Assembly: GCA_964504535.1 (NCBI GenBank)
Contig: CAZDED010000003.1
Location: 6,850 to 70,849 of the forward strand
DNA from: an uncultured Gammaproteobacteria bacterium
GTDB lineage: Bacteria > Patescibacteriota > Microgenomatia > Levybacterales > GWA1-39-11
DNA length: 64,000 nt
Reading direction: 5' to 3'
Part shown: positions 1 through 47,539 of the stretch, piece by piece
How positions within the stretch are numbered: position 1 is the stretch's first letter
Layout of the letters: each line of letters opens with the position of its first letter
The notes under the pieces: generated by a model
What the model was told of the DNA's origin: nothing
Seen by the model: the letters and a program-made list of their open reading frames with translations, nothing else
The model's database searches: none
Program-made: the position numbers and the translations under genes

Positions 1-3000
1 GCTGGGTTTGTATCAGAAAGAATGATTGGGCTTGCATTTGAGAATGTATTTGTGTTGCTGAACACATTTGCTTGATTAAGGTATGCAACATTTGTAAGTG
101 TTCCTGCTGTGTTAATGTTCAACCCATTGAGTTGGATAGCAGTAATGGCGTTGAGAACGTCTGTCTGGACTGTGCCTGAAGCTGTGATGTTTGTTGCTCC
201 GGTTATTGCACCAGTATTTGTGATACCTCCTGTGTTGTTGTTTATACCTCCTGTAATGTTTGCTCCACCTGCAGTAGCTACAAAACCATTGGCAGCAGTT
301 ATTGTTCCGGTTCCGGTTGTTGTAAGATTGCCACTTGTTGTAAGATTCCCATTTTCGTTTATGGCAAGAGTAGCCGAACCACTTGATTGGATTTGCAAAG
401 CATTCTGAAGTGAGGCATTGGTGTCATTGATGACCAAAGCTGCACTTCCTGTTCCAGCGTTAGTTAAAGTGAACTGACGAGAGTTAAGGTTAGCAAGAGT
501 AAAGTCTATGTTGCCTTCATTGTCTGTTGCAGAAATTGTATTTCCTGACTCATAAGCATCTTGAAGGGTTACTGCATTTACATTTGTATTACAGGTAGAG
601 ATCTGGTCACTTCCATTTCTACAAAGAGCAGTTGTGCCATTAGTTCCAAGTGATGAAAGTTGGGTTAGATTGCTTAATATTATCTGTCCGGATCCATTTG
701 GAGTAAGGGTGAGATTTTCGTTTGTCCCTGTTGTGATATCTGTTGACACTCCATTGAATGTGAGAGTACCGGTTGTAGTAATCGCTCCTGATGCAACTGT
801 TCCAATATTTGTAAGGTTGCCTGATGAGTCGATTCTTGTTGTACCATTTGTTTGTACATTTGTTAATGCATTAACCGTTGCAACGCTCAAAGTTCCAACA
901 GTCCCATTATCAACTACTGTGAGAAGAGTATTTGGTGAACCATTTGAATCTGCAACAGTAAGGGTTCCCGCAGCATTTCCAGCACCTAGTGTAAGAATTG
1001 GATTTGTATTTGATAGAACAAGTGGAGAGGCAGATGAAAATGTATTGGTTGCAGTAAAGGTATTTGCCTGATTTTGGTACGCAACGTTTGAGAGAGTTCC
1101 TGCAGTATTAATGCTTGTTCCATTGAGTTGGATTGCTGTTATTGCATTTAGTATGTCTGTTTGGGTGGTTCCACTTGCAGTGATATTGGTGGCTCCGGTA
1201 ATAGCACCAGTATTTGTAACACCACCGTTATTATTGTTGATCCCTCCTGTTATGGACGCGCCACCGCTCGTAACAGTGAGCGCGCCCGCAACAGTTTGAC
1301 CCGTCGTGAAATTATTATCTTGACCTTTATATGCAACGTTAGAAAGAGTTCCTGTTGTATTTATGTTGGTGCCATTAAATAAGAAGCCGGCAGTCGCATT
1401 AACCGTTCCGGAAAGTGAAAGATTTCCGACGGTGCCTGCATCCGTTAATGTGAAGAGGGTATTTGCGTCACCATCATTAATTGTCAAAGTACTATCGACT
1501 CCGGCAGTACCAAGAATTGCCGTAGGTGCTGCATTAGTGAACGACAATGGCGATGCGCCAGAAAGAGTAACTGTTCCTGAAGCTGTAATATTGGTTGCGC
1601 CGGAAATTGCACCTGCGTTGGTGATGCCTCCTGTATTGTTGTTAATACCACCTGTTATTGATGCGCCACCGCTAGACACTGTCAAAAGACCGCCGATTGT
1701 TTGACCGACAGTGAAGTTATTGTTTTGTCCTTTGTAGGCTACATTTGAAAGAGTTCCTGTCGTGTTAATATTTGTTCCATTGAGTAAGAAACCTGAAACT
1801 GCATCAACTGTTCCTGAGATTGAAAGATTCCCAACCGTACCTGCATCTGTAAGGGTTAGAAGAGTATTTGGTGAACCTTCAGCGTCTTTAATGGTCAAAA
1901 CCCCATTATTTCCAACGGTAGCAAGAGTTATGATTGGTGAATTATCAGCAAATGTAACTGGGCTTGCATTGGAGAAGATATTATTTTGTGAGAATGTATT
2001 TTGTTGGTTTTGATATGCAACATTTGAAAGGGTGCCTGCAGTATTGATGTCTACTCCGTTGAGTTGGATCACTGAGGTTCCGTTAAGAGTTGCTCCTTGG
2101 ATAGTACCACTCGCAGTAATATTTGTGGCACCGGAGATGGCACCTGCATTGGTAATGCCCCCTGTATTATTGTTGATTCCTCCATTGATTGAAGCGCCAC
2201 CTGAACTTACCGTCAAAAGACCATTGATGGTTTGACCAACCGTGAAGTTATTATTTTGATTCTTATATGCAACATTTGAAAGAGTTCCTGCAGTATTTAC
2301 ATCAACACCATTTAATTGAAGAGAAGTGGTTGCGCTTATTGTCGAAACGGAAAGAGATCCACCATTGCCATAATCAGTCAAAGTTAAGAGAGTATTTGGA
2401 GATCCTTCAGCATCTCTAATCGACAAAACTCCATTTGTTCCAGCTGTAGCCAAGGTTATGATTGGCGAAGCATTCGATAGTGTAAGCGGAGAGGCAGAGG
2501 AGAGCGTAACTGTACTTGAAGCAGCAATCGTCGTAGCACCAGAGATAGCGCCAGTATTAGTAATGCCGCCAGTATTGTTGTTTATTCCTCCGGTAATTGA
2601 AGCACCACCGGTACTGACGGTCAAAAGTCCTCCGATTGTTTGACCAACGGTGAAGTTGTTGTTCTGATTCTTGTATGCAACATTTGAAAGAGTGCCTGCT
2701 GTGTTGATGTCTACTCCGTTGAGTTGGAAGGCAGAAACTGCGTTGATGATATCACCCTCTATTGTGCCTGTTGCTGTGATGTTTGTAGCGCCTGAAATTG
2801 CCCCTGCGTTGGTGATACCTCCCAAATTATTGTCAAGTCCTGCTGAAATACTTGCACCATTTACAGCTGTCAAAAGACCTGCAGATGTTATGGTTCCTGT
2901 CCCTGTAGTTGCGATATTTCCACTTGTAGTTATGTCGCCTAACTCATCAACGGTCAAAGTTGATGTGCCGTTTGATTTTACATTGATAGCAATTCCTCCT

Positions 3001-6000
3001 GTTCCGGCAGCAGTGTCGTTGAGGATCAGCGCGTTTGCTGTACCAGCATTGGTTAAGGTAAATGATGTTGGCGAACCAAGTCCACCCGCTAATGTAAATG
3101 CTATATTTCTTCCCGTCGTTGTAGTGATTGTGTTGCCATTGTCATATGCTGTCTGCAATGTTGCGGTTGCGGCATTACAAGAAGCGATTTGATTTGAAGC
3201 ATTCCGGCAGAGAGCTGTTGTTCCATTTGTTCCAAGGGTCGTAACTTGAGTAAGATTGCTAAGAATAATTTGCCCTGTTCCGTTTGGTGTAAGAGTGAGA
3301 TCTTCATTAGTTCCGGTTGTTATGTCGGTTGTAACCCCGTCAAATGTAAGAGTCCCGGTGGTAGTTATTGCTCCTGATGAGATTGTGCCAATATTTACTA
3401 GGTTGCCGGATGCATCGATCCTGTCAGTTCCTGATGTTTGGACTGATGTTGTTGCGTCTAACGTCCCACCCTGAATTGTTCCTGATGCAGTGATGTTAGT
3501 CGCTCCGGAAATTGCACCTGCGCTGGTGATACCTCCAGCGTTGTTATTGATTCCGCCGGTGATACTTGCACCACCTGATGAGACAGTAAGCAATCCTCCA
3601 ATTGTTTGAGCAGTTGAGAAGTTATTGTTTTGTCCTTTATAAGCAACATTTGAAAGAGTTCCTGTTGTATTGATGTTGGTGCCATTGAATTGGAGAGCTG
3701 TCGTTGCATTGATATTAGCAACAGTCAATGTGCCATTTGTTCCATTGTCAGTAAGTGTCAAAAGAGTGTTTGGAGATCCTTCAGCATCTTTTATAGTAAA
3801 TACACCGTTGTTCCCAGCGGTAGCAAGTGTAAGTGTGGGCGTATTGTTAGATAATGTCAGGGGGTTTGCGCTTGATAATGTGACAGTACCTGAAGCATCA
3901 ATAGTAGTTGCACCTGAGATTGCGCCTGCACTTGTTATCCCACCTGTATTATTGTTAATTCCCCCGGTTATTGAAGCGCCACCGGTGGTTACCGTCAACG
4001 CTCCTCCGATTGTTTGACCGACAGTAAAGTTATTATCTTGACCTTTGTAGGCTAGGTTTGAAAGTGTACCGGTTGTATTGATGCTTGTACCATTCAATAA
4101 AAATGCAGTTGTTGCATTGATATTAGCAACAGCAAGAGTTGCTGTTGTGCCATTGTCTGTAAGCGTTAGTAAGGTATTTGGAGAACCATTTGAATCCTTT
4201 ATCGTCAATGTCCCCGCAGCATTACCGGCTCCAAGAGTCACGATAGGATTAGTGTTTGAGAATGTAAGAGGACTTGCGCCTGACAAAGTAACTGTTCCTG
4301 ATGCGTCAATGGTGGTAGCGCCCGCAATTGCACCAGCAGCTGTAATTCCTCCAGTGTTATTAGCAATCCCTCCGGTTATGTTTGCTCCCCCGGCGCTAAT
4401 AGTAAGACCACCGGTTGAGATAGTTTGACCAACGGTAAAGGTGTTTGATTGATTTTGGTAAGCAACGTTTGTGAGAGTTCCTGCTGTATTGATATCGGTA
4501 CCAGCAAGTTGGATGACGCTTGTTGCATTGATTGTTGCACCTTGAATTGTGCCTGAAGCTGTGATGTTAGTAGCACCGGTAATAGCCCCGGTATTTGTTA
4601 TACCTCCCGTGTGATTATTTATTCCGCCCGTTATACTTGCGCCTCCGGCACTAATAGTAAGACCACCGGTTGAGATAGTTTGACCAACGGTAAAGGTGTT
4701 TGATTGATTTTGGTAAGCAACGTTTGTAAGCGTTCCTGCTGTATTGATGTTTGCACCATTTAATTGAAGGGCAGAGAGAGCATTTACAGTTCCGACACTA
4801 AGAGTTGCATCGGTTCCATTGTCGACCAAGGTAAGTAATGTGTTTGGTGAGCCAGCTGAATCTTTCACCGACAGAGTACCGTTGGCATCCCCAGCTCCTA
4901 AAGTTATATCCGGTGCTGAATTTGTAAGTGTTACAGGGGCAGCAGATGAGAGAGTTACTGTCCCTGAAGCACCGATAGTTGTAGCACCAGAGATAGCACC
5001 GGCGTTTGTTATACCACCTGAGTTGTTATTAATACCTCCAGAAATGTTTGCACCACCAGCTGTAACCGTTACACCACCAGTTGTTACGGTCAATAACCCT
5101 CCGATTGTTTGTCCAACTGTAAAGTTGTTGTTTTGTCCTTTGTAAGCAACGTTTGTGAGAGTTCCTGTGGTGTTAATGTCTGTTCCACCCAATGTAAATC
5201 CGGTGCTAGCATTAACCGTTCCAACAGATAAGGTACCGACTGTCCCATTATCGGTAAGTGTCAAAAGTGTATTTGGTGACCCTTCAGCATCAGAAATAGT
5301 CAAAGTCCCATCAGTTCCTGCAGTTGCCAATCGGATGTTAGGGTTTGCATTTGAGAGGGTAAGAGGAGAGACCCCAGTCAATGTCGCAGTACCACTTGCA
5401 GTTAAATTGGTAATACCTGTGATAGATCCAGTATTTATGATTCCTCCGGAATTATTGTTGATTCCACCTTTAAGGTATGCACCACCCGAATTGACAGTAA
5501 GAGCTCCGGCTGATGTGATTGTTCCGGTGCCGGTTGTCGTTATGTTTCCACTTGTTGATACATTTCCGAGCTCAGAAATGGTCAGCTTCGAAACACCTGC
5601 AGACTGAACATCAAGAGCTATTCCACCCGTTCCTGCATTTGTATCATTGATGACAAATGCATTTGCACTTCCTGCATTTGTAAGTGTGAATTGGGTCGTA
5701 AGACCGGTATCTAGCGTGAAGTCGATGTTGCGACCAGTAGTTGTAACAATCGTATTTCCAGCGTCATACGCCTGTTGCAAAGTTACAGCTGTTGCATTGG
5801 CTGCACAAGAGGCAAGCTGATTGCTCGCATTGCGACAAACTGCAGTGTATCCGGTCATTGCAGAAAGGGTGGCGACTTGGACATAGTTGTTGAGAAGTAT
5901 CTCGCCTGTCCCGTTTGGTGCAAGAGTAAGATCCTCGTTTGTTCCTGTGGTAATATCAGTTGCAACTCCATTAAATGTTAGAACTCCGCTTGTTGTGATA

Positions 6001-9000
6001 GCACCGGAGCTGATGGTATTAATATTTGTTAAGTTACCTATAACGTCTAGTCGTGTTACACCGTTTGTTTGGATATCATTTGTTGCATTAAGCGTTGCTC
6101 CTTGGATAGTGCCACTTGCTGTGATGTTGGTAGCACCGGTAATGGCTCCTGTATTTGTTATACCGCCAGCGTTATTGTCTATTCCTCCGGAGATATTTGC
6201 ACCACCGGTTGTTACAGTAAGTAACCCCCCAATGGTCTGACCTACAGTGAAGTTATTATCTTGACCTTTGTAGGCTACATTTGAAAGCGTTCCTGTTGTA
6301 TTGATGTTAGTTCCATTGAGAAGGAAAGCTGTAGTAGCGTTGATGTTAGCAACAGCTAGTGTTGCTATTGTGCCGTTATCTGTAAGCGTTAGTAGGGTAT
6401 TTGGAGCACCATTTGAGTCTTTGATAGTAAGAACTCCAGCTGAGTTTCCAGCACCGATCGTTATTATTGGTGTAGTGTTTGAAAGAGTCAAGGGCGATCC
6501 GCTTGAGAGTGTAACTGTTCCTGATGCAGCAATTGTTGTAGCACCGGCAATTGCTCCTGTATTTGTAATGCCCCCAGCATTGTTTACGATGCCCCCAGTG
6601 ATATCTGCTCCACCGGTTGTGACAGTCAAAAGACCACCAATCGTCTGACCGACAGTGAAATTATTGTTTTGTCCTTTGTAGGCTACATTTGAAAGTGTTC
6701 CTGTTGTATTGATATCGGTTCCATTCAGTTGGAAAACAGACGTTGCATTTATTGTTGCTCCTTGGATAGTACCTGAAGCTGTGATGTTTGTAGCACCGGC
6801 TATAGCACCCGTATTTGTTATACCTCCCGTATTGTTATTGATGCCACCCGTGATATCAGCACCACCTGCCTGGATAGTAAGTCCACCGGTTGTGATGGTC
6901 TGAAGCGCTGTAAAGGTATTTGATTGATTTTGATAAGCAACGTTCGTAAGGGTTCCGGCTGTATTGATATCAACTCCCCCAATCTGCAATGTTGTACCGG
7001 CATTAACCGAACCGGTGACTGATAGATTTCCGGTCGATCCAGTATCGGTAAGTGTCAGAAGAGTATTTGGAGAACCATTAGAATCTTTGATAGTTAGCGT
7101 TCCATTTGCATTTGCAGCACCCAATGTCACAATCGGATTGGTGTTACTAAATGTTAATGGAGATGCAGCTGATAATGTTACTAGACCTGATGCTCCAATT
7201 GTTGTTGCTCCAGAAATAGCACCTGCGTTTGTGATTCCACCCGTGTTGTTGTTGATGCCCCCGGTAATTGAAGCGCCACCGGTTGTCACAGTAAGTAACC
7301 CCCCAATGGTCTGACCAACGGTAAAGTTGTTGTCCTGTCCTTTGTAAGCAACATTGGTAAGGGTACCAGTAGTGTTAATATTTGTCCCTCCAAGTAAGAA
7401 TCCACCTGCTGCATTTATCGTTCCTGTAACAGAAAGATTCCCGACAGTACCGTTGTCTGTGAGCGTTAGTAGAGTATTGGGCGAGCCTTCCGCATCTTTT
7501 ATGGTAAGAACTCCATCAACACCTGCTGTAGCAAGCGAAATATTTGGAGTCCCATTAGTGAGCGCGAGTGGATTTGCTCCGGACAATGTAACAACTCCTG
7601 ATGCATCAATTGTTGTAGCGCCTGAAATTGAAGCCGTATTTATGATGCCACCATTATTATTGTTGATACCACCAACTACGGACAAACCACCTGCAGAAAT
7701 TATCTGTGCAGCCGTAAATGTGTTTGATTGATTTTTGTATGCAACATTAGATAAAGTGCCAGCTGTATTAATGTTTGTTCCATTGAGTTGGATAGCTGTA
7801 ATGGCATTTAAGATATCAGTTTGGGTTGTTCCCGAAGCGGTGATATTCGTTGCTCCCGATATAGCACCAGTGTTTGTGATGCCTCCTGTATTGTTGTTTA
7901 TTCCCCCAGTGATATCAGCCCCACCTGCTTGAATAGCAAGCCCACCGGTTGTAATAGTCTGACCGGCAGTAAAGATGTTTGCTTGGTTGAGGTAAGCAAC
8001 ATTTGAGAGTGTACCGGCTGTATTGATATTGGTTCCGTTTAGCAGATACCCTGTTCCTGCGTTTATGGTTCCTGTCACTGAAAGATTACCGACAGTACCT
8101 GCATCAGTTAGGGTTAGAAGAGTGTTTGGAGAACCTGCAGAATCTTTTATTGTCAAAACACCATTCGCATTCCCAGCTCCTAATGTCACTATAGGATTAG
8201 TATTACTAAATGTTAATGGAGAGGCAGCAGATAAAGTAACAAGTCCTGATGCTCCAATTGTTGTTGCTCCAGAAATAGCACCTGCGTTTGTGATTCCACC
8301 CGTGTTGTTGTTGATGCCACCCGTTATTGAAGCTCCACCGGCACTAACAGTTAGCGCTCCTGCTGAAGTTATAGTTCCGGTACCCGTTGTTGCAATGTTT
8401 CCTGAGGTCGTGATTGTTCCTAGCTCAGAAATCGTAAGAGCAGAGGAGCTTGCCGATTGAATCTCAAATGCGACTCCGGATGAGCCGGTTCGAACATCAT
8501 TGATAACAAATGCGGGTGCGCTTCCTGCATTCATTACGGTAAATGAGGTAGCAGTTCCCGTATCAGTATCCTCATCATACAGAGTGAAATCAATATTTCT
8601 TCCTGATGATGTGAGGATTGTGTTTCCTGCATCGTATGCAAGCTGGAGAGTAACACCATTTGAATTAGGCGCACAAGCAGCTAGGTAATTTCCTGCATTT
8701 CGGCACAAAGCGGTAGATCCGTCCGGCGAAGCAAGAGTTGGGATCTGGACTGTATCGTTGAGATTGATAACTCCGGTTCCATTTGCGACAAGCGTTAGAT
8801 CTTCATTGCTTCCTGTTGTGATGTCGGTTGCGGCTCCGGTAATTGTGACTGTACCTGCGATATTTTGTGCTGCTGTGAAGTTATTGTTTTGCCCTTTATA
8901 AGCAACGTTTGTTAAGGTTCCAGTTGTATTGATACTGGTACCATTTAGCTGGAAGACGGATGTCGCATTGATGGTAGCCCCTTGTATTGTGCCACTTGCC

Positions 9001-12000
9001 GTGATGTTTGTAGCACCAGTTATTGCACCAGTATTTGTGATACCACCATTCTGATTGTTAATACCGCCGGTGATATTTGCACCTCCGGCATTAATCGTAA
9101 GTCCTCCCGTATTTATTGTTTGTCCAATTGCAAATATATTTGCCTGATCAAGGTAGGCGACATTTGAAAGTGTAGTACCAACGTTAATATTTGTTCCATT
9201 CAGTAAAAATCCTGTTGTTGCATTAATATTTGCAACAGCAAGTGTGGCATTCGTACCGTTATCGGTAAGAGTTAGCAGTGTGTTTGGAGAACCTTGAGCA
9301 TCTGTTATTGTCAAAACACCATCAACCCCAATCGTTGCAAGGGTTACAACTGGTGCTGCGTTTGAGAGGGTCAATGGGGATGCACCGGACAATGTGACGA
9401 CTCCTGAAGCATCAATCGTAGTAGCGCCTGAGATAGCGCCGGTGCTTGTAATACCACCAGAATTGTTATTGATGCCACCTGTTATTGAAGCCCCCCCAAT
9501 TGTTACTGTCAAAGCACCACCGATTGTCTGACCAACAGTGAAGTTATTATTCTGACCTTTGTATGCAACATTTGAAAGAGTCCCTGTTGTATTGATATTA
9601 GTTCCATTGAGTAAATAACCACCGACTGCATTTATTGTTCCCGATACTGATAGATTTCCAACAGTTCCTGTATCTGTCAGCGTGAGAAGAGTATTTGGTG
9701 AACCTTCAGCATCTCTAATGGTTAACGTACCGTTGGTGCCCGCGGCCGCAAGAGTGATAGCCGAAGTTGTTGCAGTAAGCGCAAGCGGCGTACTATTTGA
9801 GAGAGTAACAAGTCCAGATGCATCAATTGTAGTAGCGCTACCAACTGAACCGGTATTTGTTATTCCTCCATTATTATTGTTAATTCCACCGGTGACTGAC
9901 AATCCACCCGAGGATATAATTTGCCCTGCAGTAAAGGTGTTTGATTGGTTCTTGTATGCAACATTTGTCAGTATTCCAGCCGTATTAATATCTGTTCCAT
10001 TTAACTGAAGCGCAGTGACAGCATTAATAATATCCCCCTGAACAGTTCCTGATGCTGTGATATTTGTAGCACCGGTTATAGCACCGGTGTTTGTGATGCC
10101 ACCATTATTATTGTTGATGCCACCGGTAATTGAAGCGCCACCTGTTGTTACTGTCAAAGCACCCCCGATTGTTTGGCCAACAGTGAAGTTATTATTTTGT
10201 CCTTTGTATGCAACGTTTGTGAGAGTTCCGGTTGTATTGATATTGGTTCCATTCAGAAGAATTCCTGTTCCGGCATTTATGGAACCTGTCACTGCAAGAT
10301 TTCCTACAGTTCCTGTATCTGTCAATGTCAAAAGAGTATTTGGTGAACCTTCAGCATCATTTATAGTTAAAACTGCATTGGTACCGGCTGTTGCAAGTGT
10401 TATGACCGGCGCACTATCTGAAAGCGTAAGTGGAGAAGCATTTGACAACGTAACAACGCCTGAGGCGTCAATTGTTGTTGCTCCGGCAATTGCCCCCGTG
10501 CTTGTGATGCCACCCGTGTTGTTGTTGATGCCACCGGTTACATCAAGACCTCCTGCGCTGATAGCAAGACCACCGGTTGTAATCGTTTGTCCTGCAGTAA
10601 AGGTATTTGATTGGTTCTTGTATGCAACGTTTGTGAGGGTATTTGCTGTATTTATATTTGCCCCGTTCAGTTGAAGAGCGCTGGTAGCGTTGATCGTTCC
10701 GACCGTAAGAGTTGCAACAGTTCCATTATCAACCAATGTCAGCAATGTGTTTGGTGTTCCATTTGAGTCTTTGATAGTAAGTGTTCCGGCTGCATTACCT
10801 GCCCCCAATGTAATAATTGGTGTTGTATTTGACAACGTCAGAGGTGAAGCACCGGAGAGAGTCACAACTCCTGAAGCTGCTATGGTTGTTGCCCCGGCAA
10901 TTGCCCCCGTGTTTGTGATGCCTCCTGTGTTGTTGTTGATGCCACCCGTTATTGAAGCACCACCCGCAACGACTGTTATACCTCCGGAGTTGATTGTCTG
11001 ACCCAACGTAAACGTGTTAGCTGTATCAAGATATGCAACATTTGTTAACGTGCCACCGGTATTAATGTTAACTCCGTTAAGTTGAATTGCAGTTATTGCA
11101 TTGAGGATATCTGTCTGCGTTGTCCCACTTGCGGTGATATTTGTAGCTCCGGTTATAGCACCGGTGTTTGTGATGCCACCATTATTATTGTTGATGCCAC
11201 CGGTAATTGAAGCGCCACCTGTTGTTACTGTCAAAGCACCCCCGATTGTTTGGCCAACAGTGAAGTTATTATTTTGTCCTTTGTATGCAACGTTTGTGAG
11301 AGTTCCGGTTGTATTGATATTGGTTCCGTTAAGTTGGAGCCCTAAAACAGCATTGATAGTGCCTGTAATCGCAAGGTTTCCAACAGTGCCATTATCGGTG
11401 AGCGTAAGAAGTGTATTTGGTGAACCTTCCGCATCCCTGATCCTCAACACTCCATTATTTCCTGCGGTTGCAAGCGTAATATCTGGAGCGCTGTTAGATA
11501 GAGTGAGTGGGGCAGCCGAGGAGAAGGTATTTGTATTGCTAAATACATTCGCCCGGTCAAGGTAGGCGACATTTGATAAGGTACCTCCCACATTGATACT
11601 GGTACCATTCAGCTGAAATTCAGTTATGGCATTTATCGTATCACTAGTAGTAGTTCCAGAAGCAGTTATGTTAGTAGCACCAGTTATTGCACCAGTATTT
11701 GTGATGCCGCCATTATTATTGTTGATGCCGCCGGTAATTGAAGCACCGCCGGCACTGACAGTAAGGGCTCCGGCAGAGGTTATAGTGCCGGTTCCGGTGG
11801 TTGCGATATTGCCAGAAGTCGAGATGGTCCCAAGCTCAGTGATGGTCAAAGCAGAGGAACTAGCAGACTGGATTTCAAATGCAATTCCGCCTGAACCGAC
11901 ATTCGTATCATTGATGACAAAAGCATTTGCACTTCCTGCATTTGAAAGTCTAAATTGAGTCGTAAGACCACTATCAAGTGTAAAGTCGATATTCTTACCG

Positions 12001-15000
12001 GCAGTGGTAAGGATTGTGTTTCCGCCGTTATATGCTGACTGTAAAGTAACCCCAAATGCTGTAGGGTCACATTGGGAAAGCTCATTTGTCACATTTTGAC
12101 AAAGGACTGTAAATCCTTGGACACCTGCAAGAACGGGAATTCTCACGGTATCATTTAGGACAATTTGTCCACTTCCATTTGCAAGAAGGGTGAGGTCCTG
12201 GTTTGATACTGTTGTAATATCTGTTGATACACCGCTAAACGTTAACGTTCCTGTTGTTGTGATAGCGCCTGATGCTACCGTTCCGATGTTAACAAGATTC
12301 CCTGATGAATCAACTCTTTGGGTGCCGTTGGTTTGGATTGATGATACTGCATTGAGAATATCTCCTTGAATTGTTCCTGAAGCCGTAATACTTGTTGCAC
12401 CAGTTATCGCACCAGTGTTTGTAATGCCTCCCGTATTATTGTTTATTCCTCCATTTATTGAAGCTCCACCGGCGGTCACAAATAGTCCGTTTGCAGATGT
12501 TATGGTTCCTGATCCTATTGTTTGGATGCTATTTGATGAAGAGATATATCCACTGGTAGAAGCGTTACCACTTTCATCAATGGTGAGTCTTCTGTTTCCT
12601 CCAGACTGAATTTCTAATGCAACCTGATTTGGAGCAGCATTATTGTCATTTATAATAAATGCACTCGCAGTCCCCTCATTTGTTAACGTCAATGAAGTTG
12701 CTGCATTTAGACCCGACGCAAGAGTAAAGTCAATATTTCTACCTGATGTCGTAAGAATTGTATTCCCATTGTCATAAGATGATTGCAATGTTCCGGCAGA
12801 TGATCCGACATCGCAGAGTACAACCTCATCATCACCATTTGTACAAAGAGGGCTTCCAACTACAGTAACTAAGTTTTCTATCGTTACTGTGCTATTGGCT
12901 GCAAGTGTTGTGAATTTCCCTGAAGAACGAGTTGTATTTCCGATTGGAGTATTGTCTATTGATCCACCGGTTATTACAGCGTTACTTGATGAGAAGTTAT
13001 TAGCAGTAACTGCTCCGGCAATACTTACCGTGTCTGTTGATGACCCAATATTTATCACATCAGGACTCGTGTTATCCGTACCAATATTTACAGTATTTCC
13101 GGTAGTTAAAGTACCAAGATTTATCACCCCGTTTGCACTTGCTCCAGCACCTGCATTAATTGTTACCGATCCACCCGTTGAACCACCAGCAGTAGTTGTT
13201 CCTGCAATTAGTCTTAGATTGCCACCGGTTGCCGCAACGGTTGAACTTGCTGGATTGACTGTAATATCCGTTCCACCAACAAGTGTTGAAATGTCTGAAG
13301 TATTATTTCCAGCAAGATAAATGACTCCGGCTTCTGAAATCTTTAGAGTTGATGCTCCATTGGACTGAAGATCAATAAATGTTCCCGATCCGCCAGCTGA
13401 CGTGTCATTTACGATAAATGCACTTGCCGTGCTTTGATTTTCAATGGTAAATGACGTTGGAAGGTTAAGACCAGGAGCAAGCGTGATAGCTACATTTCGT
13501 CCGTCGTTTGTGAGAATCGTATTTCCATTGTTATACGAAGATTGAAGAGTTCCAGTACCTGATCCGATAGAACATTTAATGATGTTATCAAATGAATCAA
13601 TACAAAGTGCGGTTCCTGAGCTTGTCGTCAAATTCTCTATAAGAACGGTACTGTTGGCAGCAAGCGTTGTGAATGCACCGGTTGATCTGACAGTTGCACC
13701 AACGCTTGTGCCATTTATAGTTCCTCCAGTTATCGTAACACCACTTGATGTGAAGTCATTAGCGGTAACTTCACCCAATAGATTTATAGTGTCCAATGCT
13801 GATCCAATATTGACAATGTCGGCCAGAGTGTCATTTGTTGCGATATTTATGACATTTCCACCAGCTCCTGTTCCGATATAAATAGTCTTTGCACTATTGC
13901 CGATACCAATATTTATGTCACCAGTTGTTCCTGTATCAAGAGTGAGTGAATTTGCACCGGTCGCAGATATTGTTCCGACTCCGGCAAATGTAAGATCTGT
14001 TGCTGTCACTCCAATTGTGTCAAGAGAGATAACACCGGTTAGCGCTCCAAGTGTCGAAACATTTAATCCCCCGTTTGAAGTGACGGCAAAAGTACCTGTA
14101 GCGTTGCCTATCGCTACATTTCCTGTCCCGGTTGTTGCAATATTTACATCGGATGCACCTGAGGTTCCAAGATTTGTTGTTCCGGTTGATGAAAGAGTTG
14201 TAAAGGCACCTGTCGATGGTGTGGTTGCTCCAATTGCGGTGCTATTGATTCCCGTTGCAGTTGCTGTGAAATTGCCGGAGGTTATCAGTAAATTATTTAC
14301 CCCGGCATTGATAGATGATGCAGACAATCCTGAAAGACTTAATACGCCAGAGGTAGCGGTAAGGTTGATAGCACCGGTTGTTAGAGTCAGTCCATTTGAT
14401 GCTGTCAAAAGACCTGCTGATGTTATTGCTCCAGTACCTGTCGTTGCAATATTTCCACTGGTCGTAAGATTTCCGAGTTCATTGATGGTGAGAGTTGCAG
14501 AACCAGAGGACTGGATCTCAAGCGCAGTGTTGACTGAACCGCTTGTATCATTTATCAAAAATGCACTTGCTGTACCTTGATTTTCAAGAGTTAGAGATGT
14601 TCCCAAATCAAGCCCCAAAGTAAAGGCGATATTTCTGTCCTCAGTTGTTGTTATTGTGTTTCCTGTGTTGTAAGCTGCCTGCAATCCAAATGGTGCACCG
14701 TTACAATAAACAAGATTAAAACTTGTATCAAGACACAGAGTATTTCCATTTTGGGTCTGGAGACCATTGATCTGGATCCTTTCGGTTGCAGAAGTATTAA
14801 ATACTATATTGTTTCCATTTGAAGGAGTGAATACTGCACTCCCTGACGCATCAAACGAGTTACCGTTGGTAACCGTTACATTTCCATTGAAGGTCGAAAT
14901 TCCTGCAACATCAAGGGTGCTACCCAATGTTGTGGCTCCGGTTCCGACAGAGAAGGTGTTAGAACCAGTCACGGACGTATTACCGTTCAAAGAAACATTA

Positions 15001-18000
15001 CCTGTACCTGTTGAGAATGTGTATGCTCCAACTTGTGTTATGTTGTTGTTAAAGGTACTTATTCCATTAACTGTAAGTGCACCCCCAAGTGTAGTAAGAC
15101 CGGTACCGACTGTAAATGTATTTGCTCCCGTAACTGATGTATTTCCATTCAGAATTGTCAACGCATTTATATTAAGATTTCCCACACCATTGAGAGGACT
15201 GATTGTGATCTCTCCCGTAGTATCTCCACCTATTGTCAACGTGTTGAACTCCGTTGTTTGGATTGATCTTGGCGCACCAGCAAGAGTAAGGTTGCCAGAT
15301 ATTGAGGCAGCACCTGTCGTAGTGAGATTTGTGAATGTAGCTGCGGCTGGGGTTGTCGCTCCGATAACGGTTCCGTTGATACCAGTTGCAGTCACATTAA
15401 TATTTGCAGCTCCAACCAACAGATCATTTCCACCAAACTGAAGTGTAGAAGATGAAAGTCCGGTCAAATTGAGAAGTCCTGAAGTACCAGTGAGACTTAC
15501 TGCACCGGTTGTTACTGTTAGGCCATTTGATGCTGTCAAAAGAGCATTTGACGTTATAGTTCCAGTACCTGTTGTTGCAATGTTTCCACTTGTCGTCAGG
15601 TTTCCAAGCTCGTTGATGGTGAGTGTCGCTGATCCCGAAGATTGGATCTCAAGCGAAGTATTTGTATTAGCATTATTATCATTGATGATAAATGCCGAAG
15701 CGGTACCAAGGTTTGTGAGAGTGAGTGAAGTTGTCTGATCCTGACCCAACGTGAATGCAAGATTTCGACCCGGAGTTGTCGTGATTGTGTTTCCTGTGTT
15801 ATATGCAGCTTGAAGTCCGAAAGGCGCTCCGTTACAGAAAGCGAGGTTGTTGCTTACATCCAGACAAAGTGTATTTCCATTCTGAGTCTGGAGGCCATTG
15901 ATTTGAATTCTCTCTGTTGCAGAAGTATTGAATACAACGTTGTTCCCTGTTGAAGGTGCAAATACTGCAGCTCCGGATGCCAGTAACGTATTTCCTGTTG
16001 AGATAGTAAGGCCCCCATTAAATGTGGCAAGGCCGGCAACATCTAGAGTGCTGCCAAGGGTTGTGGCGCCTGTTCCGACTGTAAATGTATTTGATCCGGT
16101 AACTGAAGTATTTCCGTTCAAAGAAACTGCTCCGGTTCCTGTTGAGAATGTCCCAGTTCCAACCTGACTAATATTGTTGTTGAACGTTGCAGCCCCTTGA
16201 ACACTCAAAAGACCGGTAATGTCTGTGTTGCCGGCAATTTGTACAAGCCCCGTCGTATTGCCTCCAATAGTAAGGGTATTAAAATCAGTCGTTTGGATAG
16301 AACGTGGAGCGCCTGCAAGTGTCAGATTGCCTGAAAATGAAGCGTTTCCTGTTGTTGTTAGGGTCGTAAAATTACCGGTTGATGGAGTAGTTACACCAAT
16401 TGCTGTGTTATTGATGCCGGTAGCAGTCGTTGTGAAGTTGGATGATGTAAACGTCAGAGCATTTGCACCTGCATCAAATGTAGATGCCCCAAGCCCGGTA
16501 AGAACAATTGCACCAGATGTACCCGTAATATTCACAGCTCCAGCTGTGACAGTAAGGCCATTTGAGGCAGTTAAAAGTCCATTAGATGTAATCGTTCCGC
16601 CTGATGTTGTAAGAAGGTTTCCAATAGTTGAGAGATTCCCGTTCTCAGAAATTGTTAATGTAGCCGAACCGCTTGATTGAATAGCTAAAGCATTTTGCAC
16701 AGAAGCATTTGTGTCATTGATCACAAATGCGGCGCTACCTGTTCCTGCATTAGTAAGCAAGAACTGTCTGGACGAAAGATCTGCAAGGGTGAAGTCGATA
16801 TTCCCGTGAAGATCATTTGCAACTATAGTATTACCCGAATTATATGCCTGTTGTAGGGTGACATTGAGAGCGTTTGATGAACAGACAGAAAACTCGTTGA
16901 GTCCATTTCTACAGACAACAGAAAAGCCAACAGTTCCTGAAAGATTTGGAATTCTCGTAATAGTATTTAGAACTATTTGTCCCGTTCCATCAGGTGAAAG
17001 GGTAAGGTCTTCATTTGAGTTTGTCGTGATATCTGTCGCAGCACCAGAAAATATGAGGCCAGTAGAACCGATTGATTTATTTGAAAGAGTCTGGGTCTGG
17101 TTTGCAAACACGAAAGTGTCATCTGCAGTGAGCGCTGGAATAGTTGCAAATCTTGAAGCAACAGGAGCAATTGACGTAATTGTCGTAGTGTTTGTTGTTC
17201 CAAGAACTATCTGGTTTGTTGAGTTGGTAAGATTAAGTGAAGCAAAAGTAGGGGATGAAGTTGCAGCAATATCTTGAGGAAGAGAGAGTGCAATAGTCCC
17301 TGACCCATTCGTCACGAGAACTTGATTTGAAGTACCGGTAATAGTATTCAAACTAAATCCTGACCCATTCCCAATGAGAAGAGCTCCATTTGGAGCAGCA
17401 GATGCATCTACACCTGTTCCACCTCTTAAAGGAGCGAGTTGTTGTTCTGTTGCAAGAACCCCTGATGCATTATTGATAATAACACCAGCTGTATTAAATG
17501 GTGTGATAGTTACTGAGGTGTTAGCTGTTAGGCCAGTAAACACTGCGGTTGATGGAGTTGTCGCACCAATTGCAGTACTATTGATTCCTGTTGCCGTGAC
17601 ACTAAGATTTGCTGCCCCTATGAGTAAATTATTTCCCCCAAATTGAAGTGATGAGGCTGACAAGCCTGATAAATTAAGTGCACCGGATGTACCCGTGACA
17701 TTGACTGCACCGGTGGTTACTGTAATTCCGTTTGAAGCGGTTAGAAGTCCTGCAGATGTTATTGTTCCAGTCCCAGTTGTTAGGATATTTCCACTTGTTG
17801 AGAGATTACCAATAGAAGTTAGGTTTCCATTCTCAGAAATAGTAAGAGTAGCAGCACCGCTTGATTGGGCTTGAAATACGTCTTGGACTGAAGCATTCGT
17901 GTCGTTGATAACAAATGCAGCCGACCCGGTACCAGCATTTGTAAGGAGGAATTGGCGGGATGAAAGGTCAGCAAGGGTAAAGTCAATGTTCCCTTCGGAG

Positions 18001-21000
18001 TCAGTTGCTGATATTGTATTTCCTGCTTCGTATGCAAGTTGAAGTGAAATGTTTGCAGCGTTTGCCGGACATTCGGTTATTTCGTTACTTATGTCATCAC
18101 GGCAAAGGGTAGTTGCACTTAGTCCAGCAGTCGGAAGATTAAGTAACTTGGTTATATTTGAAAGGACAATCTGACCGGTCCCATCTGGGGTAATCGTAAG
18201 ATCTTGGTTAGAAACCGTAGTGATATCTGTTCCAACCCCATTAAAGGTTAACGACCCGGTAGCTGTAATTGCACCCGTTGATAAGGAGCTGCTTGTGACA
18301 GAACCCGTTGTTATAAGATTTCCATTCTCAGAAATCGTGAGAGTTGCAGAACCGCTGCTTTGGATAGACAAAGCATTTTGGATAGAAGCATTCGTGTCAT
18401 TTATGACAAATGCTGCCGATCCTGTCCCGGCATTGGTAAGTAAGAATTGGCGGGATGAAAGATCTGCAAGAGTAAAGTCAATGTTGCCTTCACCATCTGT
18501 TGCACTAATAGTGTTGCCTGCTTCATAAGCAAGTTGCAGTGAAATATTTGCAGCGTTTGCCGGACATTCCGTTATTTGATGGGACGAATCGTCACGGCAT
18601 AGAGTCGTTGCAGCAACTCCTGCAACAGGCAGATTTTCAAGACGCGCTATATTGGAGAGCACAATTTGACCGGTTCCATTTGGAGTGAGCGTAAGATCTT
18701 CATTACTGACGGTGATTATGTCATTGGCAGCTCCTGAAAATACAAGCCCTGACGCCCCAATTGTTTTGTTAGTTAATGTCTGTGTTTGTGCGGCAAATAT
18801 AAAAGTGTCGTCAAACGTCAACGCAGGAAGTGTTGCAATTCGTGGCGCACCTGGGGCAGGTGAATTTATGGTCGTAGTGTTGATGGTTCCGAGAGATATT
18901 TGGTTGGTAGTTGCAGCAAGACCGAGGTTTCCAGCATAAGAAAGGGTTGCCGCATTGTCTCCGGCATTATTAACAAATGCCAACTGATATGTTGGAGCGG
19001 TAGTTAGAATCTGATTTTGAAGACTAAAAGTAAGATTGTTTGAGGAAGCTCCATTCCAATATGATCCCTGAAGTGACAAAAGATTTGAGTTGTTAAGAGT
19101 CGCACCGCTCGTTGATGTAGCAAGCCTCAATAATGACAATGTATCGGTGCCAGTTTGATCTCCCACATTAAATGCAGTCAAAGAGGTGATTGTCGTACCG
19201 TCATCCGTAAAATTAGAATCTCCGATATTTGATCCCGTTACAGTAAATTTAGCTAGTCTATTTAGCGTACCGGCACCACCGACAACGCCACCAGCACCTG
19301 CACAGTTTCCGACAGTAAGACAAACTGTTCCATCATAGTCTGGAATACTAATAGTCCGCAGCGTACCTGTTGTAATCTGACTTAGATCAAACAAGAATTG
19401 CTTCGTATTGTCTCCGCTATTCTGGAACGTGATCGAGTTGTCGGTCAGCAATTTGTTAGTCAATGTCTGACTTTGATTGGCAAATATGAATGTGTCATTT
19501 GCGGTAAGACCGGGAATCGTTGCGATCCTTGCAGCAGCTGGCGCTACGGAATTTATCGTAGTGGTATTAGTTGTTCCCAATACTAACTGGTTTGTTACAG
19601 CTTGTGATGTCAAAACTCCTGCGGTAGTTAGATTTCCATTTTCGTTGACAGTAAGAGTTGTTGATCCATTTGATTGGACTTCAATTCCATTTTGGTTTGC
19701 AGCATTCGTGTCATTTATAACAAGCGCCGATGACGCTGTACCTGCGTTTGTAAGAGTCAATGCCCGAGATGAAAGAGCTGCAAGAGTAAGTGAAATGTCA
19801 CCAAATGCATCTGTTGCAGAAATTGTGTTTCCAGCTTCGTATGCGAGTTGGAGTGAAATATTTGCAGCGTTTGCTGGACATTCCGTTATTTGATGGGACG
19901 AATTATCACGACAAAGAGTCGTTGCAGCAACACCAGAAACAGGCAGATTTTCAAGACGTGTAATGTTTGAAAGGACTATTTGCCCTGTCCCATCAGGGGT
20001 AATTGTGAAGTCTTCATTTGACAGTGTTGAAATATCGGTCGCAGCTCCTAAGAACACAAGCCCAGTTGTTCCAATCGTTTTATTTGTGAGCGTTTGAGTC
20101 TGTTGTGCAAAAATAAATGTATCATCAACAGCTAGGGCAGGTAAAGTAGCGACACGTGGAGCAGCGGGAGCAATGGAACTTATTGTTGTCGTATTTCCAG
20201 AACCCAGTACAACTTGATTTGTTGCTGCTTGGGCAGTCAACGTTGTCGCTGAAAGGATTGATCCTGTACCGGTTGTTAATATGTTTCCTGCGGTTGAAAG
20301 TAATCCTGTCTCATTTATGGTAAGCGTCGCAGAACCACTACTTTGGATGACCAACGAATTATTGACTGATCCGCTGGTATCGTTGATTACAAAAGCACTA
20401 GCTGTTCCTACATTTGTGAGGAGTAAGGAGGTGGATAGACCAGATCCCAATGTAAAGTCGATATTTCTATTTGCAGATGTAGTTAATGTATTTCCTGAAT
20501 CATAGGCAAGTTGCAATGAAACATTGCTGGCATTTGCCGGACATTGCGTTATTTCGTTGCTAATATTGTCACGGCAAAGGGTAGTTGCAGCAACACCTGC
20601 AGATGGAAGACTGCCCAGTCTTACTGTGTTAGAAAGAACGATTTGCCCTATACCTGAAGCGGAAAGCGTGAGATCTTCGTTACTTGCGGTCGTGATATCT
20701 GTTGTTGCTCCTGAGAATATAAGTCCGGTAGACCCGATTGTCTTATTGCTTAATGTCTGAGTCTCATTTGCAAATACGAATGTATCAGATGCGCTAAGAG
20801 CAGGAATGGTTGCTGTTCTAGGAGCAGACTGTGAATTGGCATTTATAACTAACGTATTCCCGGCAGCACCAAGAGTAAGTTGGTTACTTGTATTTGAAAG
20901 AGACTGGGATGCGAATGTCGGCGAAGATGTCGCCGCAATATCTTGAGGGGTAGAAAGAACGATTGTGCCACTACCGTTCACAACATTTACCTGATTTGAT

Positions 21001-23837: not shown

Positions 23838-24269
23838 AGCCTCAAAAAGAAGGCTAACACTGTTAAGAAATGACTGAAAAGAACTTATAGTTTTTGGGGA
23901 ATTTGAAATAATAGTTGCCCGTGCCTCGCCAGCCTTGACTAGCTTTGTCAGATCCTCTTCCTGGTATTGGAGTTCTCCTTTTTCGTCGACAATTGGGGTT
24001 AAAGAATGGAGGTCGCAGAGGTACACAAGGGTTTCAACTGAAACACCAAGCTTACGAGCTGCCTGTTTTAATGTTAATAATTTCATTGACGAGTTTTGAC
24101 TATCGCGTATATATAAAACGGGTGTATATCTAATGTATCTATTTTTGCTAAAACTAGTCAACGTACGTTAATGATAGGTACTGTAACAAACTGTACTGTT
24201 TTTTATAAAAAAAATTTTTGCTTGTGAAAGGACACAAAAAAACGAAAAAAAGGCTGATATAGAAAGTAA

Positions 24270-24470
24270 TAGAATGAATCAGTGGACTGGAACCATATCA
24301 AATATTAAAAAACATGGTATATTTCACGAAAACTTTTCACGAAAATTAATCTCATAGTTATTGGAAAACAAATTTAGAAAAATCTTTTTTTTAAAAATGC
24401 AGAAAAAAGTATTTCATTTTTAAAAATTTTCACAAATTGTTTTCACGGAGTACTGTATTTTGAGGCTAAA
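24270..24470 (-). promoter_or_regulatory. AT-rich leader upstream of the giant gene with four TTTCAC(G/A) direct repeats at 24322-24345 and 24427-24449. Possible transcription-factor sites or promoter elements.
   Basis: There are 735 bp of non-coding AT-rich sequence between the 3' end of atpC (24573) and the giant-gene start (23837). The repeated motifs are atttcacgaaaa, ttttcacgaaaa, ttttcacaaa and ttttcacgga. Confidence 0.25.
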
Positions 24471-24572
24471 TATATTTATGCGTAAACAAATAAATTGATA
24501 TAACAGTAAAAACTATATTTATGATTATAAAAATAGTACGCGTAATAAATTAGCTTGATTTGAAGCTCCAAA

Positions 24573-24848
24573 CTATTTGGTGTCCATGAAGAGAACTTCG
24601 ATTCCTAAGAAGATATTGGCACTGTCCTGCTTAACTTTCATGACAGCTTGCTCAAATTTTAGCTCTTTTACCTTTTCATGGTTATCGTAAAGAACTAACT
24701 CTTGGCGAATGATAGAGATAAAGTTAGCGTGCATAGGATAGATATCGAAAGGACCAACCTCGTTAAATGAGCTTATCCTTTCAACCTCACCTTCAAAAAT
24801 GATATTTTCTGTGTCTCTTATTTTGACTTTGAACTTCTTGTCGGCCAT
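24573..24848 (-). CDS. atpC: F-type ATP synthase epsilon subunit (short; N-terminal beta-sandwich domain)
   Basis: 91 aa, MADKKFKVKIRDTENIIFEGEVERISSFNEVGPFDIYPMHANFISII. It is in epsilon-like register and lies immediately downstream of the beta subunit, as in canonical atp operons. Confidence 0.7.
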   Translation of the reverse strand: MADKKFKVKIRDTENIIFEGEVERISSFNEVGPFDIYPMHANFISIIRQELVLYDNHEKVKELKFEQAVMKVKQDSANIFLGIEVLFMDTK

Positions 24849-24857
24849 AGGATTTTT

Positions 24858-27319
<2,462 letters not shown>

Positions 27320-45034: not shown

Positions 45035-45571
45035 TTACTTGAAAGTTATTACAAATGTAAGACTATATTTCAAGGTTTTCGGATTGAGACCAAATGACCG
45101 TAGATCAATTTTTCTAATTCCTCTTTTTTTGTCTGTCGCTAGCTCAGCGATCTTACTTTCGATAAGATCATTCAGCAAAGACAGGCTGTCTGATTCCAAT
45201 GTAATCTGCATATCGGTATCTGTACCGTTGATTGCATCTACAGCAGTATCCGAAGATATAACTCCTGATACCGAGTCCAGACGGGATACAACTGGAGATC
45301 TCTTACTGAGCACTTTCTGAACATCTGCTATCCTGCTTTTTATTTCGATCAACTTATCCTTCTTTTCTTGCATGGCAAGCAACTGAGAATTTAGCTTTTG
45401 CTCTTTCTGATCAAGACTGTCATACGTTCCCCTCAGAACAAGCCTATAGACAATAAGCCCTAAAGAAATGACAACAGTGGCACAAAAAACTCCGACAGTT
45501 ACATAAAAGAATTTCTTTAAAGCACTATCTACGCGTTTCCTTCCAAGTGTGAGATTGATTCCTTGTTTCAT
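45035..45571 (-). CDS. pilN: Type IV pilus assembly protein PilN-like
   Basis: A short cytoplasmic N-terminus, one TM helix, then a coiled-coil. Its position between pilM and pilO supports the call. Confidence 0.55.
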   Translation of the reverse strand: MKQGINLTLGRKRVDSALKKFFYVTVGVFCATVVISLGLIVYRLVLRGTYDSLDQKEQKLNSQLLAMQEKKDKLIEIKSRIADVQKVLSKRSPVVSRLDSVSGVISSDTAVDAINGTDTDMQITLESDSLSLLNDLIESKIAELATDKKRGIRKIDLRSFGLNPKTLKYSLTFVITFK

Positions 45572-45576
45572 AGAGG

Positions 45577-46602
45577 CTAAATTGCATCCTTTAACGCAAG
45601 CCCTGATACAACATTATAGCTTAATGAGTCAGCGCCGATTTCTGGTGGAACATTTTTCATATCATAGACTTGAAATGAACTTCCCAAAACGACTTGAATA
45701 TTGAGTTGATTGGTGAAGTAAATATCAACTCCCGGTAATTGAGCAGACCCTCCGGACAGAATCATTTGTGTGATAGTTTGGTTAGGGTTTTTCTCCTTAT
45801 AAAGAAGCATCGTCTTTCTGATGTCTCCTAAAATCGATTCAAGAATAGGGAAGAGTGATTTTCCAATTTTTCCTTCAAATGCATCTTTATTGAGACCATA
45901 TGCCTTTTTGTATGAATCTGCCTGCGTAAGATCTATGCCAAGGTCAAGTGAAATAGCACGAGTTATTGCAATTCCCCCCTTGTCCACGGTAAAAACCATT
46001 ATTAATTCTCCATTTTCAACGACCGCAATATTTGTTGTTGCCGCTCCCATGTGAACGATCATGTTTGAACTTGCTGTATTAACAAGCGGAAATATTGACC
46101 TGTGGACAGAAAGCATCTCCGTTTCAATAGTTGAGGGAACCAAACCAAGCTCATCAAGTACTGTTTCATATTTCTTGATCAGTGCAAGTGAAGCAGCGAC
46201 CAAAAGTATTCTGGAGGTCTTATTTTGAGCAGTTGATGGACTAAGAACTTGCCAATCCGTTTTTACTTGATCTAAGGGGAGAGGGATATATTGCTCCATT
46301 TCATACTTTAAAGCAGCTGCTAATTCCTTTTCGGAAAGAGCAGGCATTTCTATTATCTTAGTGTAAACCTGACTCTCAGGAAGTGCTACATTTACTTCTT
46401 TCTGCTTTATGTTTGCACTTGTTATGATCTGCTTTACCGCTTCAGCAAATTTATGAAGATCTTCCGGGGACTCAGACATAATCCCCTTTTGTGGTGCAGG
46501 ACCAAGTCCCATGGACTCAATAGCAAAAGAGTTCCCTCCCTTTTTAAGAGAAAGCGCCTTTATAGACGTTGTTCCGATATCTAACCCGAATGTATCGCTC
46601 AT
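45577..46602 (-). CDS. pilM: Type IV pilus assembly ATPase-fold protein PilM
   Basis: Actin-like fold, FGLDIGTTSIKAL N-terminal motif. 341 aa. Confidence 0.75.
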   Translation of the reverse strand: MSDTFGLDIGTTSIKALSLKKGGNSFAIESMGLGPAPQKGIMSESPEDLHKFAEAVKQIITSANIKQKEVNVALPESQVYTKIIEMPALSEKELAAALKYEMEQYIPLPLDQVKTDWQVLSPSTAQNKTSRILLVAASLALIKKYETVLDELGLVPSTIETEMLSVHRSIFPLVNTASSNMIVHMGAATTNIAVVENGELIMVFTVDKGGIAITRAISLDLGIDLTQADSYKKAYGLNKDAFEGKIGKSLFPILESILGDIRKTMLLYKEKNPNQTITQMILSGGSAQLPGVDIYFTNQLNIQVVLGSSFQVYDMKNVPPEIGADSLSYNVVSGLALKDAI

Positions 46603-47480: not shown

Positions 47481-47539
47481 ATCAATAATACGGTCAAAGC
47501 AGAGAAGATGTCAAGCTACGACCTGCTATGCAGGTTACG

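Follow-up and report, generated by a model that had tools for sequence, protein, structure and literature searches.

Giant gene and near-identical tracts

The window analyzed here comprises 64,000 nucleotides of contig CAZDED010000003.1 (forward strand, positions 6,850 to 70,849), and its first 24 kb belong to a giant gene on the minus strand that consists largely of diverged repeats. All coordinates refer to the window and are given in plus-strand numbering. Within this gene, a few short blocks recur nearly or completely unchanged. We interpret these near-identical blocks as short tracts of in-frame gene conversion within an array of repeats that is itself ancient and conserved, not as recent tandem duplications, and give this reading a probability of about 80%.

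The reading frame is free of stop codons from 1 to 24167. The gene caller starts the open reading frame (ORF) at ATG 24086, so that it covers 1-24086; an alternative start is ATG 23837. The window holds the N-terminal ~8,000 codons of the gene, and the rest lies past window position 1. In a public ENA record (NODE_223), the ORF is called with 11,295 aa and is cut by the contig end. The gene is therefore at least 9.8 kb longer than the part in the window, and it is incomplete even on the ENA contig. Sequence identical to the window lies 9,800 nt further in on this record, whose name gives a length of 64,334; all 64,000 nt of the window would not fit at that offset, and the window probably stems from a different assembly of the same strain.

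The first pair of blocks, T1, is an exact match of 179 nt (10072-10250 and 11149-11327, both minus strand) with an offset of 1077 nt (359 codons), and it encodes ...NGTNINTTGTLTNVAYKGQNNNFTVGQTIGGALTVTTGGASITGGINNNNGGITNTGAITG. An earlier inspection of the letters alone (the sequence-only reading) had reported this pair at about 10090-10250 and 11165-11330; the match is stronger than was claimed. The second pair, T2, had been reported as near-identical at 7141-7260 and 8201-8320 and is recovered with 110 of 116 positions identical (94.8%) between 7144-7259 and 8203-8318 (minus strand; offset 1059 nt, 353 codons). It has an exact core of 74 nt (7186-7259 equals 8245-8318). The third pair, T3, had been missed. 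It is exact over 77 nt (4396-4472 and 4651-4727, minus strand), reaches 92.8% over 125 nt (4369-4493), and joins adjacent units at an offset of 255 nt (85 codons).

These three pairs stand apart from the rest of the gene. An exact-match scan of the frame gave three outliers, of 179, 77 and 74 nt, while the next longest match has 35 nt. The offsets of T1, T2 and T3 are all multiples of three and connect aligned positions of the units, so that each pair is in register. When 22 units were aligned codon by codon, which gives 231 pairs, the longest run of identical codons was 1-9 in 228 pairs; the three outliers were 48, 24 and 11 codons, the first being the portion of T1 that falls within one unit. 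Runs of any of these three lengths were not reached in a single one of 2000 column permutations. The borders of T1 are sharp, with flanks that are only 67-68% identical between its two copies. Outside T1, conserved residues are encoded by differing codons; inside, all synonymous sites agree. T2 fades gradually on its 3' side through synonymous differences.

A fourth pair is less clear-cut. The cores of two Cys-loop modules (18511-18644 and 19825-19958, minus strand, offset 1314) are 90% identical over 134 nt and 92% over 75 nt and contain no exact run beyond 28 nt; identity over the surrounding 510 nt is 74%. This core pair is either an older conversion tract or a case of strong conservation. 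The similarity that had been noted at 18530-18620 and 19860-19950 is thus real, while "almost identical" was an overstatement.

Age and stability of the repeat array

Outside the near-identical blocks, whole repeat units across the 24-kb open frame are only 63-75% identical at the nucleotide level. Self-comparison of the frame yields 264 direct matches that cover 86% of it, with offsets that are multiples of three in all but two cases (262/264), and no inverted matches. Identity declines as matches get longer: no self-match of at least 400 nt exceeds 74.1%, and the median for 400-800 nt is 67.5%. Over the 231 unit pairs, the medians are 64% nucleotide identity, 69% amino acid identity and 42% identical codons among identical residues. 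Synonymous sites among the repeat units are near saturation.

Scanning GTDB species genomes with the unit alignment yielded two orthologous loci. The first, L007 (CAZAJO010000008.1), aligns almost without gaps to window positions 16160-41 at 77.9% over 16.1 kb (16,120 nt), and to 19401-15213 at 79.8%. We consider L007 to represent a related species, since GyrB encoded on this contig is 98% identical to that of the window at the protein level and 84.6% at the DNA level. The second, L011 (CAZEGF010000012.1), aligns to 14459-3 at 74.1%, again almost gaplessly over 14,457 nt. Identities at the three codon positions are 0.915/0.963/0.478 between the window and L007 and 0.866/0.934/0.434 between the window and L011. 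This pattern points to strong purifying selection on the giant protein, with synonymous change near saturation. Relative to the L007 species, the giant gene of the window has also changed somewhat more rapidly than housekeeping genes have (78.5% versus 84.6% nucleotide identity). Third positions are at 0.48 in the giant gene and 0.60 in 59515-61467, and second positions of the giant gene keep 96%.

Module spacing is conserved as well. Successive Cys-loops are separated by 165, 397, 349, 377, 377, 253, 248, 1132, 956, 876 and 862 residues in the window, and by 165, 397, 349, 410, 377, 377, 253, 248, 1132, 957, 875 and 862 residues in L007. Eleven of the 12 spacings in L007 thus have a counterpart, and the agreement is within 1-2 residues over ~6,000 residues. 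A more distant ortholog, L041 (64.6% nucleotide identity), is collinear over 8 kb. This shared order and spacing argues that the repeats are old and that the array is stable. Because orthologous units resemble each other more than they resemble neighboring units within the gene, the repeats would be ancient duplicates that now evolve mostly independently.

The single spacing difference between the window and L007 lies at ~15.2-16.2 kb. Here, the window has two adjacent 377-aa modules (14371-16187, minus strand), while L007 has three copies, the additional one being a 410-aa module. The sequence-only reading had described a 1.15-kb block at 14580-15750 that recurs at 15750-16900 with only scattered substitutions. 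This description does not hold: the best alignment has 72.7% identity over 686 nt (14371-15056 versus 15502-16187, offset 1131), the longest exact match in it is 21 nt, and the whole modules are 67% identical. The three copies in L007 are mutually 72.6-73.8% identical, and the middle one has no clear ortholog in the window. Sliding identity gave no clean breakpoint and did not tell loss of the 410-aa module in the window apart from its gain in L007. Since the three copies are so diverged, the difference is best seen as an old gain or loss, not as a recent expansion. Changes of whole modules thus appear to happen, on long time scales.

The sequence-only reading had attributed the near-identical blocks to recent unequal recombination or slipped-strand expansion and had considered the locus phase- or length-variable. 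The head-to-tail, in-frame arrangement of the repeats would fit tandem duplication in the recent past, through unequal crossing-over or slipped-strand mispairing, at a locus that varies rapidly in length or phase, and one module does differ between the window and L007. The exact tracts, at 74-179 nt, would also be long enough for homologous recombination. The divergence of the units speaks against this explanation. A duplicated unit should be near-identical throughout, and no head-to-tail units that are ~90% or more identical over the whole unit were found. Identity instead falls sharply at tract borders within units, and the unit pairs that hold the tracts keep their order even in species whose third-position identity to the window is down to 48% and 43%. 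The L007 copies at the site of the copy-number difference are too diverged for a recent event, as are the whole units, whose synonymous sites are near-saturated. Tandem Repeats Finder reported no array within 7140-16900. No 2-7-nt repeat of five or more copies is present in 1-24600, where the sole homopolymer runs are C7 at 9491, A8 at 24207 and T8 at 24385; there is no tract of the phase-variation type in the 5' coding region or the promoter, as a simple-sequence contingency gene would have. We consider recent tandem duplication improbable. Of the earlier explanation, recombination among intragenic repeats is retained, and recent duplication or slipped-strand expansion is not. Phase or length variability finds no support either. 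The sequence-only reading had itself named self-alignment as the check, with 80% identity between units as the dividing line. In that comparison, the units fall below 80% and only short islands rise above it, which refutes near-identity at the level of whole units on the reader's own terms.

Paralogs and orthologs at the tracts

The strongest argument for gene conversion comes from comparing each tract with its paralogous copy and with its orthologs. The two copies of T1 are 100% identical in the window, 93.9% in L007 and 81% in L011, while the orthologous comparison between the window and L007 gives 87.7-88.3%. In the flanks of T1, the relationship is reversed (paralogs 66-74%, orthologs 78-86%). 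Paralogs therefore group together inside the tract and orthologs group together in the flanks, which is phylogenetic incongruence within a single reading frame. This flip of similarity at the borders of T1 has the signature of gene conversion after the species split and suggests that two lineages have undergone conversion at the T1 position.

Only the lineage of the window has T2 and T3; in L007 and L011, identity between the corresponding units is 69-85%. The T2 pair has 94.8% identity in the window versus 80.2% in L007 and 77.6% in L011. The T3 pair (100% in the window) has 69% in L007 and 74% in L011. For T2, a direction can be proposed. The copy at 8203-8318 is 90.5% identical to its own L007 ortholog. 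The copy at 7144-7259 is closer to the L007 ortholog of the other copy (87.1%) than to its own (79.3%) and for this reason is probably the acceptor, with 8203-8318 as the donor.

Other loci have tracts of their own. L007 has an exact match of 110 nt at the equivalent of window positions 6440-6331 and 4217-4108, where the window pair is 80% identical. L011 has a match of 173 nt at 99.4% (equivalent to 10250-10078 and 9605-9433), where the window pair is 85.5% identical. In-frame exact islands of 85-272 nt also occur in six further loci (L008, L013, L014, L015, L021 and L026).

Gene conversion probably produced this pattern as follows. Occasional non-reciprocal homologous recombination would copy 70-180 nt of one unit onto the in-frame homologous position of another, and this would wipe out all differences between the units, including the synonymous ones. 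The enzymology may be RecA-type recombination that is initiated where units are locally most alike. We infer that the tracts are by-products of recombination among repeats and not an adaptive device. The exact tracts of 74-179 nt could in turn now act as recombination substrates, through which 85, 353 or 359 codons would be deleted or duplicated in frame, and they would be the sole substrates in the window that are long enough for efficient homologous recombination.

Reliability of the assembled sequence

Several points weigh against gene conversion as the origin of the tracts. Donor and acceptor are ambiguous for T1 and T3. T1 sits in the most conserved segment of the unit, where unconverted pairs reach 81-90%; part of its raised similarity is due to constraint for this reason. 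The tracts T1-T3 are known here from assembled sequence alone. The source contig is a short-read metagenome assembly with ~9x coverage, the weakest setting for repeats, and the independent same-strain assemblies that match the window exactly extend over just 14573-36441 (ENA) and 18531-25469 (Logan), regions outside T1-T3.

The exact tracts might thus be assembly artefacts, with path merging in the de Bruijn graph (bulge removal or consensus) writing one sequence into both copies. In addition to the type and depth of the data, the length of T1 fits this view, as 179 nt exceeds common k-mer sizes, and the giant gene breaks assemblies in many samples. Comparison with the related loci points the other way. 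Similar islands are present in every related locus, in SPAdes-style as well as MEGAHIT-style contigs, and near-identical strains in separate records share identical islands. L039 and L040 (99.35% identical, 40 mismatches in 6.3 kb) are separate JGI records that have identical islands in common, and the same holds across L041, L042 and L043 (99.9% identical, 10-15 mismatches in 10-13 kb). Graph merging would yield neither the raised yet imperfect 93.9% between the L007 copies of T1 nor the gradual 3' decay of T2 through synonymous differences. It would also require closely spaced shared k-mers on both sides, which should be rare at ~70% identity. Finally, no length discrepancy exists relative to the two orthologs across the tracts. 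On balance, an artefact seems an unlikely source of the tracts.

The gene is nevertheless hard to assemble, as the sequence-only reading had warned. Nearly all homologs of the giant gene that were found end at contig ends, and the giant gene fragments assemblies. The same strain (100% identity) is present in several other public samples, on short contigs that cover 24467-26708 (L002-L004) and 18531-25469 (L031) and end just upstream of the giant gene or inside it. L031 breaks off within the Cys-module repeat, at position 18531. Same-strain contigs retrieved through neighboring proteins end before reaching 14.5 kb. When JGI metagenome contigs were scanned for an exact match to 60 nt of T1, none was obtained, a protein search with the T1 region retrieved only six distant fragments, and a second metagenome scan found no relative closer than 70%. 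The other part of the warning, collapse of repeats, is not borne out. Nothing within the window points to assembly collapse, the lengths across the tracts agree with L007 and L011, and the 24 kb of the gene in the window appear to be correctly ordered.

Nucleotide-level selection and targeted diversification

A further possibility is that the blocks are held identical by selection at the nucleotide level, be it on an embedded antisense gene, an RNA element or through extreme codon constraint. T1 does overlap two plus-strand ORFs (10057-10674 and 11101-11565), in addition to lying in the most conserved protein segment. When projected onto the orthologs, the ORF at 10057-10674 has one stop codon in L007 and five in L011, and that at 11101-11565 has two stop codons in L011. 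The orthologs differ from the window at 12% of the tract positions although the paralogs are identical, and the positions and partners of the tracts vary between lineages. We regard such selection as very unlikely. An embedded antisense gene at T1 was considered as a candidate and rejected on account of the stops in the orthologs.

Seven antisense ORFs on the plus strand lie inside the giant gene (150-227 aa; 2671-3192, 5155-5607, 10057-10674, 11101-11565, 13897-14580, 14767-15441 and 16219-16680). Since most of them are interrupted by stops when projected onto the orthologs, these long ORFs are by-products of the composition of the sense strand and not genes.

Near-identical pairs of 75-180 nt in a gene for a surface protein superficially resemble the template and variable repeats of a diversity-generating retroelement, so that such an element, or another type of targeted diversification, might have made them. 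In T2, T3 and the Cys-module pair, however, mismatches also fall outside the adenines of one copy, and most are at third codon positions. Both copies lie within one reading frame, and a scan of 20 flanking ORFs gave no reverse-transcriptase domain. This origin has almost nothing in its favor, and a diversity-generating retroelement was rejected because the mismatch spectrum is not adenine-specific.

Module architecture and protein family

The giant protein has 16 Cys-x(6-14)-Cys motifs, 15 of which lie within an aligned module of ~190 aa. Invariant in this module are two Cys, LQ..Y..GNT and ND. Starting near residue 3,950, the protein is organized into super-units of 862-1132 aa each (1-12500, minus strand), in which one ~190-aa Cys-loop module precedes strings of short units. 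Three segments, X (~63 aa), Y (~52 aa) and Z (~22 aa), make up the short units and are combined as X+Y+Z (131-143 aa), X+Z (84-85 aa) or Y+Z (93 aa).

Comparison of five segments or super-units with Pfam, PHROGs, NCBIfam and PDB sequences gave no credible family for the modules, and only short sub-threshold or compositional matches were obtained. Five related ORFs also gave no domain at their C-termini. A profile of the X+Y+Z unit matched 89 proteins at E ≤ 0.001 among 1.84 billion representatives, most of them fragments; the unit family is rare. An AlphaFold2 model of a Cys module with X/Y/Z units, computed from a 15-row alignment of paralogs, reached a confidence score (pLDDT) of 53.5, too poor to use.

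At the N-terminus, a hydrophobic stretch TLFLGALASLLFVGGVFA behind the protein start is a putative membrane anchor. With ATG 24086 as the start, the N-terminal region (23487-24086) would open with a weakly MerR/HTH_17-like helix-turn-helix (E ~5e-4, below the Pfam cut-offs), and the hydrophobic anchor would come behind it. PF13411 is present in several homologs of the giant protein. The protein has the features of a surface repeat protein, namely a very long single ORF, purifying selection, an N-terminal hydrophobic anchor and a repeat region. We predict that the giant gene encodes a membrane-anchored surface repeat protein, with the localization judged from the sequence and not predicted by a tool.

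Additional members of the family are found in a related genome. A second contig there (L010, L013; CAZAJO010000014.1) has more large ORFs with the same units, namely one of 5,237 aa that is complete and a neighboring pair of open frames, each at least ~2,900 aa long. The family therefore seems to be multi-copy in at least the CAZAJO genome. In another locus (L005 102-1061, JGI Ga0490027_001296, protein P0040), a peptidyl-tRNA-hydrolase-like N-terminus (MSYVIVGLGNPGEEYVNTRHNTG) runs straight into X/Y/Z units. This ORF is probably the product of a chimeric contig that was joined at a short shared motif.

Genomic context and host

The genes around the giant gene are housekeeping genes. They include an F-type ATP synthase operon and code for a class A penicillin-binding protein, RecG, RNase III and GyrB. 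The giant gene is also flanked by a gene for a class I (Trp/Tyr-type) aminoacyl-tRNA synthetase and by type IV pilus genes. The pilus set, at 45035-58507, consists of a PilM-like protein, two T2SSE ATPases and a T2SSF platform protein, and it is adjoined by a homolog of the TMEM260-like O-mannosyltransferase. This neighborhood of pilus and O-mannosyltransferase genes is a typical surface-apparatus context in the candidate phyla radiation (CPR).

The nearest named relatives of GyrB from the window are from Candidatus Levybacteria (93% identity), and we therefore take the host to be a member of the Levybacteria (Microgenomates, Patescibacteria/CPR), an assignment that depends on this similarity. 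Records of metagenome-assembled genomes that contain related loci (L007, L008 and L009-L013; CAZAJO, CAZCYO and CAZEGF) are titled "uncultured Gammaproteobacteria bacterium". With CAZAJO GyrB being 98% identical to that of the window, the Gammaproteobacteria label on the CAZAJO record looks wrong. A typical CPR genome has ~1 Mb; if this applies here, the giant gene makes up ~3% of the genome.

Comparison with known systems

Intragenic homogenization (concerted evolution) of coding repeats has been described, for example, for spidroin arrays (PMC3933166, PMC3563967), and a framework that distinguishes horizontal from vertical evolution of repeats is available (PMC5120217). In spidroins as in the giant gene, non-reciprocal recombination within the gene brings paralogous copies closer to each other than to their orthologs. 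The repeats of spidroins and of many bacterial adhesins, however, remain near-identical over whole units. In the giant gene, homogenization is patchy, with three tracts of 74-179 nt in 24 kb, and ~99% of the array evolves vertically, so that orthologs are closer.

Giant repeat-rich bacterial surface proteins have been reported from metagenomes, where their repeats fragment assemblies (West-Roberts et al. 2023, bioRxiv 10.1101/2023.11.21.568195). They share with the giant gene a length of more than 10,000 codons, an N-terminal membrane anchor, a long extracellular repeat region and contigs that end within the gene. They differ in that the modules described here lack any match in Pfam, NCBIfam, PHROGs or PDB and belong to a rare unit family, and in that their hosts are Omnitrophota, while the host here is from the Levybacteria lineage. 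Distant relatives of the N-terminal region and of the units are annotated as "tail fiber domain-containing" or "beta strand repeat-containing" proteins in Patescibacteria and other metagenome-assembled genomes. Some of these relatives have a Peptidase_S74 domain, which is found neither in the window part of the giant protein nor at the C-termini of the five related ORFs.

Contingency loci and variable-number tandem repeats have in common with the giant gene that in-frame repeats occur in a gene for a surface protein. The giant gene has neither near-identical head-to-tail units nor simple-sequence tracts, and, in contrast to variable-number tandem repeats, its number of units is the same in different species, one module aside. 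Antigenic variation by segmental gene conversion, as in pilE/pilS and vlsE (reviewed in PMC3828179), likewise involves short conversion tracts between homologous segments of a surface-protein gene. In the giant gene, donor and acceptor both belong to one expressed reading frame. Silent cassettes are absent, and nothing indicates that conversion is highly frequent or has a mechanism dedicated to it. What sets the giant gene apart from these systems is the combination of patchy, not array-wide, homogenization with a length of more than 11,000 residues without a recognizable domain. Its modules are conserved across Levybacteria species and are otherwise undescribed.

Implications

Near-identical blocks in giant repeat genes need not imply assembly collapse or recent expansion, and comparison with orthologs can separate conversion patches from duplications. 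On this contig, the three exact tracts are the only plausible sites for in-frame rearrangement or mis-joining. The giant gene provides a modest but clean case of patchy concerted evolution, in a CPR gene for a giant surface protein without an annotated domain.

Surface structures of CPR bacteria are thought to mediate host attachment. A more far-reaching and rather doubtful proposal is that the giant gene represents an undescribed family of Levybacteria surface fibers, with more than 11,000 residues and no known domain, which might serve in host attachment, and that short-tract conversion might be selected for because it reshuffles or maintains a surface mosaic. The protein is built from the ~190-aa disulfide-loop module and the X/Y/Z units, which are in register between species, and conversion at T1 is recurrent in two lineages. 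If a role as surface fiber were true, this gene family would merit more attention.

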